Origin: a virus
Taxonomy: Duplodnaviria > Heunggongvirae > Uroviricota > Caudoviricetes
Virus record (IMG/VR): IMGVR_UViG_2645727562_000017
Length of the DNA stretch: 5,051 nucleotides
Direction: 5' to 3' (one strand)
Part shown: one piece after another, positions 1,973-3,640 of the stretch
Numbering within the stretch: position 1 is the first letter of the stretch
Layout: each line of letters opens with the position of its first letter
The notes under the pieces: generated by a model
Told to the model about the DNA's origin: nothing
The model's input: the letters and a program-made list of their open reading frames with translations, nothing else
Databases searched by the model: none
Translations under genes and position numbers: made by a program

Positions 1973-2252
1973 GCGTCCTGTCTCCCCGGTCTTTCTGCTG
2001 GGCGAGAAAATCGCGGCACAGGCCTTTGGCTTTCAGCTCATTCAGCACAAAATCAATATCTTCATTCAGGTAGCTGAAAATATGCGGAATGTAGAGCTGA
2101 TGCAGGCCGGAGAGTTCACGGTGAATCAAATCACCCCCAACAAACTGGGATACGGCGCTGGCGCGGTTGAGCTTATGGTAAGCCTCAATGCTGAGGTGTT
2201 CACGGGCGTCATGACGCGCTGAGACGGTCTGAGGGGCTTTTTTATTACGCAC
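1965..2252 (-). CDS. epsilon: Epsilon-like protein (P4 derepression factor candidate), 95 aa from a GTG start
   Basis: Track ORF 1965..2408 (147 aa) has an implausible Cys/Pro/Val-rich N-terminus overlapping kil out of frame. An in-frame GTG at 2252 is preceded by GGAGGTG (rc of 2258-2264) and gives 95 aa ([30 protein letters not shown]...). Position (after kil, before orf151) and size fit P4 epsilon as I recall it; identity not verified. Confidence 0.55.
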
Positions 2253-2442
2253 GGGACACCTCCACCACCGGCAGACGGGCAGCAAGGGAGAGCACATAGT
2301 CACGGACAAGGGAACGGCGGGCGCTGCGTTCATCACCGGCGACGGTGCGAAGCATACAGATACGGGGATGACGGTCTGCGCGACGGACAGCCGCAAACAC
2401 AAAGACAAATTCAGGGTGTGAAGGGGTAAGGGTTGTAGCCAT
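2245..2442 (-). CDS. kil: Kil-like small protein, 65 aa; first translated gene downstream of the PLE-like promoter
   Basis: ORF track 2245..2442 (-), 65 aa. GGAGG Shine-Dalgarno 8 nt upstream of the ATG, embedded in the seqC-like repeat. Size and position match the recalled P4 kil. Confidence 0.6.
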
Positions 2443-2453
2443 GAAGGCAGCCT

Positions 2454-2496
2454 CCGTTAGAGTAGCAAATAACTGCTATCGCCGGAGTTCCCACGC
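2454..2496 (-). promoter_or_regulatory. Downstream copy of a bipartite direct repeat (candidate seqC-type target for the immunity RNA), overlapping the kil RBS
   Basis: Plus-strand CCGTTAGAGT (2454-2463) and GTTCCCACGC (2487-2496) recur at 2724-2733 and 2741-2750. On the leftward transcript these read GCGUGGGAAC ... ACUCUAACGG. Confidence 0.45.
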
Positions 2497-2693
2497 TCGA
2501 TGGCGATAGCCCAGACGGGGGTAAGAATACCGGCCTCGAACGAATACCGGCCAGCCCGGAGGCTGCCCCGCCTGAGCTACCATTGACTCAGCGGCATAAC
2601 AAGCGAACGCGAACAGGATGCACGGAATGCCACCTGCACGACAAACCACACACCACACCATAATCTGGCGCTCTGTGGCGTTGATTGCGACAC
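2497..2693 (-). ncRNA. cI: Approximate location of the P4-type immunity RNA (cI-like) within the untranslated PLE leader; exact ends not determined
   Basis: About 250 nt between promoter and kil with no convincing protein gene. The leftward transcript has several GC-rich hairpins (CUGAG-N10-CUCAG; CAGCC-UCCG-GGCUG; paired GGCCGG elements), consistent with a processed structured RNA. The track's 90-aa ORF 2476..2748 lies here and is unlikely to be a real gene. I could not locate the complementary seqB segment by eye. Confidence 0.3.
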
Positions 2694-2715
2694 AAAAAAA
2701 GACGCATGGCGCGTC
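2694..2715 (-). terminator. Candidate intrinsic terminator/attenuator in the PLE leader
   Basis: Leftward transcript reads GACGCG-CCA-UGCGUC followed by UUUUUUU (plus-strand A7 at 2694-2700; stem from plus 2701-2715). Short 5-6 bp stem, so probably weak. Confidence 0.35.
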
Positions 2716-2723
2716 ATATGTCG

Positions 2724-2750
2724 CCGTTAGAGTTACACGGGTTCCCACGC
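2724..2750 (-). promoter_or_regulatory. Upstream copy of the bipartite direct repeat (candidate seqA-type target) in the 5' leader of the PLE transcript
   Basis: CCGTTAGAGT (2724-2733) + 7 nt + GTTCCCACGC (2741-2750). Same two boxes as at 2454-2496 but with a 7-nt rather than 23-nt spacer. Confidence 0.45.
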
Positions 2751-2753
2751 CCG

Positions 2754-2809
2754 GCTGCCGATTTTGCGGCAGCGGAAAAACTATATCCGCAAATGCCGGA
2801 AAAAGGCAA
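2754..2809 (-). promoter_or_regulatory. Sigma70-type promoter for the leftward immunity/early transcript (PLE-like), with a perfect inverted repeat at the predicted start
   Basis: Minus strand: -35 TTGCCT (2809-2804), 18-nt spacer, -10 TATAGT (2785-2780). Immediately downstream is GCTGCCG-ATTTTG-CGGCAGC (2754-2773), a 7-bp perfect inverted repeat. Lies about 40-65 nt downstream of the vis stop. Confidence 0.5.
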
Positions 2810-2844
2810 GCCAGAAAAAGGGACTTTTTGCAGAGCAGGCATCA

Positions 2845-3111
2845 TCATGCGTCGTACCCCCGTTTGCGTCCGGCAATGCGCCCGGCCATCCATGCGGTGA
2901 CTTCAGAGTGCAGCCAGGCCACATTTTTACCGCCAAGACTCACCTGCGGCGGAAATTCCCCCTTACGGATGAGTTCATAGATGGTCGAGCGTGACAGGCC
3001 GCACAGGTGCATCACTTCCGGCAGACGTAAAAAACGCTCCTGCGTGATGTCCGGCAGCGGCATCAGTGGCGTCACAGGGGCGGGAGACGGGGAAGAAAAA
3101 ACAGCTTGCAT
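2845..3111 (-). CDS. vis: AlpA/Vis-family small DNA-binding regulator (P4 Vis-like; late-promoter regulator / excision factor), 88 aa
   Basis: ORF track 2845..3111 (-), 88 aa. GAGGT Shine-Dalgarno 7 nt upstream. Contains the AlpA-type helix-turn-helix signature LSRSTIYELIRKGEFPPQVSLGGKNVAWLHSEV. First gene downstream of the leftward late promoter. Confidence 0.8.
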   Translation of the reverse strand: MQAVFSSPSPAPVTPLMPLPDITQERFLRLPEVMHLCGLSRSTIYELIRKGEFPPQVSLGGKNVAWLHSEVTAWMAGRIAGRKRGYDA

Positions 3112-3164
3112 CGGGCTACCTCGTTAATGTCCATACAGCACCGGATAAGTCCGTCCGGCTTCGG

Positions 3165-3231
3165 GTAGCGCTTTATTTTGTGAATATTTTCAGCAGACGC
3201 AACAGGGGGAATTTGTTCCGGCAACCTTACA
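3165..3231 (-). promoter_or_regulatory. Leftward late promoter (PLL-like) with Ogr/Delta-type activator dyad
   Basis: TGT-N12-ACA at 3214-3231 (TGTtccggcaaccttACA). No -35. A CACAAA element about 40 nt away on the minus strand (3182-3177) parallels the CACAAT of the rightward promoter. Predicted start near 3167, about 55 nt upstream of vis. Confidence 0.6.
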
Positions 3232-3346
3232 ATGCCTGTGTATTTTTTATCCATCCCCACTGAAAGGCACTCAAAGCCACCTAAAGCAACTCGAAATTTT
3301 TATAGTGAAATACAAATCGTTTTTTCTTATTCATTCCCAGCGAATT

Positions 3347-3520
3347 AATAAAAACAAACAGTAATAAACAGCACAAAAAGCCCATCAACGGGTGAACAGT
3401 GGTGAACAGACGGTGAACAGTCATTACTGCGATTGTTCACCCTTTAACTTACTGTATTACTTATCTTTTTTCTTATGGTGAACAGAGGTGAACAGTAAAA
3501 TATAAAAAAACAAACAGTAA
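3347..3520. repeat. Iteron cluster in an AT-rich region (P4 crr-like cis replication element; predicted binding sites for the alpha C-terminal domain)
   Basis: Octamer GGTGAACA (rc TGTTCACC) at 3391-3398, 3401-3408, 3412-3419, 3477-3484, 3487-3494 (10-11 bp phasing) plus one inverted copy TGTTCACC at 3434-3441. Flanked by a 15-bp direct repeat AAAAACAAACAGTAA at 3350-3364 and 3506-3520. Many AACAG pentamers; adjacent AT-rich tract 3250-3370. Confidence 0.72.
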
Positions 3521-3573
3521 GCCGGTTTTTCCTGCGACCTTTTCCTGGCTTGCCGGTCTGAGGATGAGTCTCC

Positions 3574-3640
3574 TGTGTCAGGGCTGGCACATCTGCAATG
3601 CGTCGTGTTGTTGTCCGGTGTACGTCACAATTTTCTTAAC
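3574..3640 (+). promoter_or_regulatory. Rightward late promoter (Psid-like) with Ogr/Delta-type activator dyad
   Basis: TGT-N12-ACA at 3574-3591 (TGTgtcagggctggcACA). No -35. -10-like CACAAT at 3626-3631. Predicted start near 3638, 26 nt before the sid ATG. Confidence 0.62.

Follow-up and report, generated by a model that had tools for sequence, protein, structure and literature searches.

The window, by which we mean the entire 5,051-nucleotide stretch of DNA analyzed here, is collinear over its full length with positions 5924-10970 of phage P4 (X51522 / NC_001609), to which it is 97.8% identical. On the minus strand it carries alpha (the primase gene; 1-1046), orf106 and orf151 (between alpha and epsilon), epsilon (1965-2252), kil (2245-2442), and vis/orf88 (2845-3111). 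To the right of vis/orf88, and on the plus strand, lie the ori repeats, sid, delta, and the start of psu. This layout is that of annotated P4; kil, which encodes 65 amino acids, was taken from the list of open reading frames and is the first translated gene downstream of the promoter PLE. The exact kil protein of the window is widespread among P4-like loci.

The region studied (2443-2809) is the leader of the leftward operon, and it runs from a PLE-type promoter to kil. Three Rfam families match the minus strand of the window here, each over the full length of its model and above its gathering score. Together with the 97.8% identity to P4, these matches identify the region as the known immunity leader of a P4-type satellite, made up of PLE, a 5' hairpin, the target seqA, the terminator t1, the CI RNA, the target seqC, and kil. 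The features of this leader are kept in more than 100 related loci, where both the structures and the pairings between sites co-vary. Thus, they are not products of chance. An initial annotation of the window, made from the sequence alone, had read the region as an RNA-mediated immunity system of the P4 type; collinearity, sequence identity, the three Rfam families, and published accounts of P4 (PMC3632133, PMC4825925) all agree with it.

The biology of such a leader is already known, and nothing new is added to it here. RNA immunity in P4 has been worked out from the 1990s onward, and each of the three RNA elements already has an Rfam model. The gain is that the bipartite seqB has now been located, and that every feature listed in the initial annotation has been matched to a named element of P4.

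The promoter-proximal leader

The PLE-type constitutive promoter occupies 2809-2780 on the minus strand, with a -35 element TTGCCT (2809-2804), an 18-nt spacer, and a -10 element TATAGT (2785-2780). A promoter scan of 2300-3300 returned TTGCCT-N18-TATAGT as the only sigma-70-like site, which is the promoter that the initial annotation had picked out, and the promoter is invariant in a five-sequence alignment that includes P4. The transcript would start at about G2773, where the isrK model also begins.

At the very 5' end, the inverted repeat noticed at the outset (2754-2773) indeed folds, in the minus-strand RNA, as a hairpin with a perfect 7-bp stem, GCUGCCG-CAAAAU-CGGCAGC. This is helix 1 of both the isrK and the c4-a1b1 models, and it is conserved in relatives.

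Next in the transcript comes seqA (2753-2724, minus strand), which is delineated by the c4-a1b1 and isrK models, by direct repeats, and by covariation with the effector. Its first box, box 1A (GUGGGAA, 2748-2742), lies in the loop of a hairpin CCGGG/CCCG (2753-2738). Its second, box 2A (CUCUAACGG, 2732-2724), is single-stranded and immediately upstream of t1. The isrK/seqA family (RF01394) matches 2773-2695 with 74.5 bits (gathering score 50; model positions 1-77 of 77), and c4-a1b1 (RF03163) matches 2786-2734 with 51.0 bits (gathering score 46.7; model positions 1-53 of 53). The two matches together take in the 5' hairpin, the box-1 hairpin, box 2, and the terminator.

That terminator (2715-2694, minus strand) is an intrinsic one, GACGCGCCAUGCGUC followed by U7, which a terminator scan picked up and which supplies the final helix of the isrK model. 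As DNA, it is GACGCGCCATGCGTC followed by T7. The initial annotation had singled out this stem and its U7, and it is the only terminator-like site in the scanned region (2300-3300). It is conserved in relatives, with variation in loop and stem. In position it corresponds to the P4 terminator t1. Briani et al., in 2000, reportedly identified the hairpin-U7 between PLE and cI of P4 as t1, whose efficiency is said to depend on CI and seqA, CI being thereby autoregulated.

The CI RNA and the kil-proximal target

The CI RNA gene (2587-2499, minus strand) is supported by a covariance model, by its fold, and by covariation. The Rfam C4 model (RF01695) matches 2587-2499 over its full length (model positions 1-87) with 69.7 bits (gathering score 45; E = 1.3e-12). 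The same segment has a minimum free energy (MFE) of -49.3 kcal/mol (z = -4.7), none of 200 shuffled sequences was as stable, and the MFE and centroid folds agree. The structure comprises a 16-bp closing stem (2581-2566 with 2520-2505), hairpin 1 (2565-2552), hairpin 2 (stem 2551-2547 with 2533-2529), and a 3' tail GCCA (2504-2501). The CI stems are 100% paired in the 61 distinct sequences of our alignment (A1, described below), and the closing stem has four compensatory pairs. Thus, the GC-rich multi-hairpin segment of the initial annotation is the CI RNA itself. Folding of the leader, which had been suggested as a check, recovered this RNA together with the 5' hairpin.

In so far as sequence can tell, the region has all that would be expected of a P4-type CI RNA. 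In P4, the processing of CI involves RNase P and PNPase; the long, acceptor-like stem of the present CI RNA and its GCCA tail may likewise resemble an RNase P substrate.

The second target, seqC (2498-2446, minus strand), is marked by direct repeats and by covariation with the two parts of the effector, a' and b'. It holds box 1C (GUGGGAA, 2494-2488) and box 2C (CUCUAACGG, 2462-2454). Box 2C overlaps the kil Shine-Dalgarno sequence GGAGG (2455-2451), and the kil ATG follows at 2442-2440. The duplication of the box pair that had been described is thus real and extends to the order of the boxes, which is identical in both copies: the box 1 repeat, GTTCCCACGC(T/C)CG, stands at 2487-2499 and 2741-2753, and the box 2 repeat, CCGTTAGAGT, at 2454-2463 and 2724-2733.

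An inverted repeat allows the unprocessed transcript to form an alternative hairpin (2510-2475, minus strand), in which GCUAUCGCC (2510-2502) pairs with GGCGAUAGC (2483-2475). Here, one strand is formed by the 3' arm of CI together with its tail, the 18-nt loop shows box 1C, and a U-rich stretch lies 3' of the hairpin. In the 61 sequences, this hairpin is 98.9% paired, with four compensatory pairs that include a tail position outside the CI stem. It may be a candidate for the atypical P4 terminator t4.

The display of box 1C in the loop of the alternative hairpin mirrors that of box 1A in the loop of the hairpin at 2753-2738.

A third pairing module was considered as well. The arm of CI hairpin 1 (2567-2557) is perfectly complementary over 11 nt to the kil TIR (2456-2446), and this pairing is 96% kept in relatives. 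Because compensatory changes are absent, the complementarity does not point to a function, and the module was rejected.

A bipartite seqB and an apparent two-module specificity code

The initial annotation had asked for a segment complementary, with G:U allowed, to both copies of the boxes. Such a segment exists. It is bipartite, and in the window its complementarity is degraded. Its two parts were recognized from relatives, which were collected with a pattern of the conserved CI hairpins in which the loop was left open (about 120 loci from IMG/VR and 8 from GTDB), and to which more were added through look-ups of the proteins of the window. Covariation was counted in an alignment of 61 distinct sequences (A1).

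In these relatives, the loop of hairpin 2 (a') changes along with box 2, and the single-stranded segment that follows it (b') changes along with box 1, in seqA and seqC alike. The pairing of b' with box 1C is 100% kept across A1, with five of its seven pairs compensatory; that of a' with box 2C is 93% kept, with six of eight pairs compensatory. Controls in which the a'/b' pairing was slid out of register were 31-50% paired. This covariation places seqB of the window at 2546-2534 (a', the loop UAUUCGUUCGAGG) plus 2527-2521 (b', UUCUUAC), both on the minus strand. With it, seqA, seqB, seqC, t1, and cI could all be assigned to coordinates of the window, as the proposed comparison with P4 called for.

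To score such pairings, whole-sequence RNAduplex energies of seqA or seqC against CI were replaced by pairing restricted to the modules, as the former are dominated by irrelevant pairing with structured parts of CI. In the relatives, b' pairs with box 1 by seven Watson-Crick pairs of seven, and a' pairs with box 2 by at least eight contiguous pairs. Across 114 loci, cognate b' pairing always has 7 bp and non-cognate pairing 2-6 bp; for a', the cognate median is 9 and the non-cognate median 5. In P4 itself, a' CCUGUGAA goes with box UUCACAGG, and b' UUCUCAC with box GUGAGAA. Other natural pairs of b' and box 1 are UUCCUAC/GUAGGAA, UUUCCAC/GUGGAAA, and CUGCAAA/UUUGCAG. In the 114 loci, 29 alleles of the loop and 8 of b' form 40 combinations, the modules being reassorted. 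P4-like immunity thus appears to use a two-module code.

Might immunity be conferred by a protein instead, the open reading frame over the region encoding a repressor? Database labels would have it so. X51522 and NC_001609 annotate a 137-amino-acid "cI gene product / transcriptional repressor" here, PGAP labels under the E. coli matches read "Icd-like" or "ash family" protein, and in relatives Phage_ASH frames of 196-199 amino acids are called across the region. The long frame, according to what Forti and colleagues are said to have reported in 1999, is eta, an anti-termination device rather than a repressor. Further, three RNA covariance models score above their gathering scores, and compensatory variation at the RNA level joins sites 30-250 nt apart, which would not be expected from coding constraint. 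The immunity factor named for P4 is, moreover, the CI RNA (PMC4825925, PMC3632133). We regard a protein repressor as having next to no chance of being the explanation.

A second possibility keeps the RNA and dispenses with its action in trans. Here, the leader would be a purely cis-acting attenuator that switches between hairpins, with no trans-acting small RNA. The conserved and co-varying alternative hairpin (2510-2502 with 2483-2475) and the intrinsic terminator inside the leader are what such an attenuator would have. It does not account for the same effector segments co-varying with two copies of the target, one upstream and one downstream. Nor does it sit well with homology to the C4/CI RNAs, a family that acts in trans (PMC4825925), or with two loci co-resident in one genome (L147 and L148), which differ in their specificity alleles as trans immunity would lead one to expect. 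A leader acting in cis only is therefore extremely improbable.

Anomalous pairing in the window

Against this regularity, the window stands out. Its a' core, UCGUUCGAG (2543-2535), pairs with box 2 (CUCUAACGG) by 3 bp, a C x U mismatch, and 5 bp that include one G.U. Its b', UUCUUAC, pairs with box 1 (GUGGGAA) by five Watson-Crick pairs and two G.U pairs. In all, the pairing is degraded by one C x U mismatch and three G.U pairs. The window is the only one of the 61 sequences of A1 with any G.U in the pairing of b' with box 1 (columns 68:104 and 69:103), and in a table of cognate pairings it is the weakest complete sequence; only L074 is lower, and there the seqC segment is unpaired.

The alleles themselves are equally unusual. 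Exact-match searches found the CI loop allele of the window in neither IMG/VR nor the JGI metagenomes, and found its b' and seqA alleles nowhere in IMG/VR. Among 5,426 complete E. coli genomes, the best match is 96.4% for the 55-nt CI core and 94.5% for 2443-2809. In GTDB representatives, the loop-open CI pattern has eight matches, all of types other than that of the window. Reconstruction from two parents, described below, traces a' to the natural alleles UAUCCGUUAGAG and UAUUCUUCGAGG, and b' to UUCUCAC and UUCCUAC, which are likewise natural; each part is a blend of its two alleles.

One could suppose that the window is a genuine single element whose CI RNA pairs imperfectly, having arisen by gene conversion in vivo or standing as a G.U wobble intermediate between two types. 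This has some appeal. The b' of the window is the formal double-wobble midpoint between the P4-type pair GUGAGAA/UUCUCAC and the common pair GUAGGAA/UUCCUAC, and both copies of the boxes carry identical alleles. Recombination is also plausible, given how common co-resident P4-like copies are. If the blended allele were real, CI would be weak on its own targets and would cross-react with both parental immunity types, and the allele would capture a switch in the specificity of RNA immunity in progress.

The contig as a probable consensus of two prophages

A look-up of the rare ORF151 protein led to draft assembly GCA_001265735.1. The window is the entire 5,051-bp contig JHRZ01000106.1 of that assembly, and the stretch returned is identical. 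The contig ends inside alpha at one side and inside psu at the other, and such a short contig, with such ends, is what would be expected of a collapsed repeat.

More telling is the letter chosen by the contig wherever it differs from P4. Read on the plus strand, the window has the alphabetically lower base of the pair in large excess: A/G 28:7, C/T 25:7, A/T 10:3, G/T 8:3, C/G 5:2, and A/C 5:3. A bias that follows the order of letters in all six substitution classes fits no mutational process. Over 21 full-length relatives taken together, the fraction of lower letters reaches 0.739 in the window, an outlier to the 0.43-0.56 of each natural relative. Insertions tell the same story. Against every full-length relative, the window has 4-14 insertions and 0-1 deletions. 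Such a bias would result if ties were broken in alphabetical order when a consensus is written, as may have happened in the assembler, or if the IUPAC ambiguity codes R, Y, K, M, S, and W were later each converted to their first letter.

The hypothesis can be turned around to make test sequences. Pairs of natural relatives were aligned, and a consensus was written in which the alphabetically lower of two bases was entered and any base was preferred to a gap. For 2430-2810, the consensus of L154 with L142 (or L158) comes within one edit of the window; the best single relative is 22 edits away, and the control rules give 24 edits (higher letter) and 17-18 edits (gap over base). For the segment 3201-3600 in ori, the best single relative is at 14 edits, the best pair under the lower-letter rule at 0, and the best pair under the higher-letter rule at 14. 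Segments of 400 nt outside 2430-2810 and the hypervariable ori segment are each within 0-2 edits of some single natural relative. Reconstruction of the whole window from one pair only halves the mismatches; exact parents are in the panel only for the two hypervariable segments.

The reading frame of eta agrees. It is continuous in L161, P4, L054, and L027, and in the window it is split over frames -2 and -3, broken by the union of the insertions of both parents. This same break, with the kept insertions, the outlying lower-letter fraction, the two-parent consensus that reproduces the immunity region to one edit and the ori segment exactly, and the absence of the window allele from IMG/VR, the JGI metagenomes, and the 5,426 complete E. 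coli genomes, stands against a genuine single element, as does an allele choice by alphabet on one strand, which no biological process would make. The wobble-intermediate reading of the pairing was dropped once the window proved to be a whole draft contig with alleles chosen by letter order. A single natural element of this kind is very improbable, and that the blended allele is real, with the weak and cross-reacting CI that it would entail, somewhat more so.

One further sequence, L163, with a 13-nt loop and the box ACTCTAACGG, was considered as a natural parent. It was rejected on two grounds: the eta frame is interrupted in it, and its alleles amount to a union of two well-attested natural types. 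L162-L167 were accordingly left out; natural parents reproduce the window better.

By these sequence comparisons, then, the window does not appear to be one natural haplotype. The specificity bases of the boxes and of the CI loop are indeed present where the initial annotation had read them; the alleles that they spell are a consensus blend and are not a natural haplotype. The effector and its targets took alleles from different parents, which produced the apparent mismatch and the wobbles. The blend thus spoiled the very complementarity by which seqB might have been recognized, and this is why it was not seen by eye.

The parents are of two natural types. In the L154-like type, the a' allele is CCGUUAGAG and its box is UCUAACGG, and the b' allele UUCUCAC goes with the box GUGAGAA. 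The L142-like type combines UCUUCGAG (a') and its box CUCGAAGG with UUCCUAC (b') and its box GUAGGAA. Within either type, effector and targets pair without interruption over 7 bp for b' and over 8-9 bp for a'. As both modules differ between the two types, heteroimmunity is predicted for them, in keeping with their residence in the same cell. Co-residence is not rare: P4-like copies occur at 1,228 places in 1,032 of the complete E. coli genomes, with a maximum of 4 per genome. In all likelihood, two P4-like prophages whose immunity differs in both modules reside in the source genome, and doubled coverage with 50:50 mixtures of alleles would be expected at the blended sites.

Comparison with named systems

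The window shares with the P4 immunity region the gene order, promoter, 5' hairpin, terminator, CI scaffold, and two targets flanking the effector. It differs in specificity nucleotides only, those of the window being a blend of two other natural types. The P4-like retronphage phiR73, as Sabbattini et al. are said to have found in 1996, owes its heteroimmunity to P4 to alterations of seqA, seqB, and seqC by which complementarity is preserved. The same principle of change is seen across the family in the present survey; the window is not phiR73.

With the C4 system of P1 and P7 (RF01695, with a1b1 as RF03163, and icd/ant), the window shares the long stem, the two hairpins, and the bipartite a'/b'. 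Both also have duplicated a/b targets, the second of which lies over the ribosome binding site of a small toxic gene (icd in P1, kil here). The two differ in what is controlled, the immI operon of P1 controlling an antirepressor, whereas here a satellite replication operon is controlled. Further, in the P4 type, unlike in P1/P7, the upstream target lies within a terminated, short, isrK-like seqA RNA.

A further relative is IsrK/STnc1160 of Gifsy-1 in Salmonella (RF01394), whose model the leader matches from end to end (2773-2695). IsrK is an sRNA/mRNA that controls anrP in a lambdoid prophage; its counterpart here belongs to a satellite immunity system, in which it serves as upstream target and terminated leader. 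The seqA RNA of P4 has been described as a structural homologue of IsrK, and STnc1160 has been suggested to be CI-like (PMC4825925). The isrK and C4 RNAs are reported to be structural homologues of P4 seqA and CI RNA, respectively (PMC3632133, PMC4825925). CI, the immunity factor of P4, is released from the untranslated leader by processing and pairs with the flanking seqA and seqC, which causes premature termination (PMC3632133, PMC4825925).

A model for the leader and for the contig

We are thus highly confident that the window is a P4-type immunity leader in a contig blended from two co-resident, heteroimmune P4-like prophages. In the natural parents, PLE (2809-2780) would constitutively drive leftward transcription through seqA (2753-2724), t1 (2715-2694), the CI RNA (about 2581-2501), and seqC (2498-2446), the last laid over the kil ribosome binding site. 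By analogy with P4, processing of the leader would yield a stable CI RNA of about 80 nt. Its a' (2546-2534) pairs with box 2, and its b' (2527-2521) with box 1, at both seqA and seqC, as covariation in relatives shows. Again as described for P4, pairing of CI with seqA would increase termination at t1, and CI would in this way regulate itself. Pairing with seqC would hide the kil Shine-Dalgarno sequence, and the untranslated RNA would terminate before the replication genes.

In P4, Forti et al. reportedly showed in 1999 that kil, at 65 amino acids, is the first translated gene after PLE and that its translation prevents Rho-dependent termination at timm. In the same work, kil is said to be the tail of the eta frame of 197-199 amino acids, which is translated from PLL transcripts.

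As for the contig, JHRZ01000106.1 would be a consensus written column by column. Where the parents differed, the alphabetically first base on the plus strand would have been entered; where one had a base and the other a gap, the base would have been kept.

The implications reach beyond one assembly. Short, stand-alone contigs of satellites that are present in several copies can be column-wise blends, and these mimic "imperfect" or "novel" regulatory alleles. A simple test for asymmetry in letter order exposes them, and such a test is needed wherever draft assemblies are scanned for unusual complementarity between an RNA and its target. A by-product of this work is a set of a' and b' alleles of P4-like satellites, which is perhaps worth a proper catalogue.

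Blended segments of the contig

The immunity leader is not the only place where the contig reads as a merger of two P4-like prophages. The segment that carries the type-1 and type-2 repeats of the replication origin (3201-3600) is 14 edits away from its best single natural relative, and is matched with 0 edits by a consensus of two related P4-like loci, L031 and L144, merged column by column under a minimum rule (the alphabetically lower base is taken, and a base is kept over a gap). By this sequence comparison, the origin segment is a second blended place in the contig, beside the leader. The iteron sequences of the window, too, should not be read as a real haplotype.

A reading frame overlies the immunity region. 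In natural relatives, an eta-type open reading frame (Pfam Phage_ASH; eta in P4) is unbroken, encodes 196-199 amino acids, and extends from the end of vis across seqA, CI and seqC into kil. In the window (2245-2848, minus strand), tblastn finds the corresponding frame divided between frames -2 and -3. This type of frame is named "Icd-like" or "ash family" by PGAP, and part of it is the "cI gene product" of old P4 records. The RNA genes that lie beneath it were absent from the annotated features of the records inspected.

Other assemblies that hold the window's rare ORF151 allele (L162, L163, L166 and L167) likewise look chimeric from their sequences. Two of these, L162 and L163, are copies on one contig (JBPKIK010000002.1, GCA_051218175.1). 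In L163, the eta frame is broken, and the loop of 13 nt and the boxes of 10 nt are the union of L062-type and Y-type alleles; L162 brings together three different types, one in seqA, one in the loop and one in seqC. L166 and L167, which are metagenome scaffolds, combine CI and seqC of one type with seqA of another. Blending may also have given rise to the rare ORF151 protein itself.

Pairings within the leader

An 11-nt stretch of perfect complementarity joins the arm and loop of CI hairpin 1 (2557-2567, GGCAGCCUCCG), which holds an anti-Shine-Dalgarno-like CCUCC, to the translation-initiation region of kil (2446-2456, CGGAGGCUGCC). Across 61 relatives, this pairing is 96% paired, with no compensatory changes and with variation confined to one side. 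An alternative hairpin (2502-2510 with 2475-2483) is also conserved, being 98.9% paired with four compensatory pairs. Here, the 3' arm and tail of CI are joined to downstream sequence, and box 1C, the seqC copy of box 1, is placed in the loop. This hairpin could represent t4, the atypical terminator, or else serve in processing or presentation.

The plus strand also carries a perfect 11-nt direct repeat, GAATACCGGCC, at 2525-2535 and 2542-2552 (17-nt spacing). On the RNA side, its copies are two GGCCGGUAUUC segments, one starting the loop of hairpin 2 and the other the b' stretch; therefore, the same motif precedes both a' and b', the parts of CI RNA that pair with box 2 and box 1, respectively.

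Immunity specificity across the family

A large survey of P4-like satellites (PMC8628076) does not mention CI RNA or antisense control, and "immunity" occurs there in the reference list only. Family-wide (114 loci, L004-L161), 29 alleles of the a' loop and 8 alleles of b' occur in 40 combinations, and the two modules reassort. L147 and L148, both from a single genome (GCA_051521885.1), are identical in b' and different in a'. Judged from these alleles, the immunity specificity of P4-like satellites looks like a code of two modules, a' and b'.
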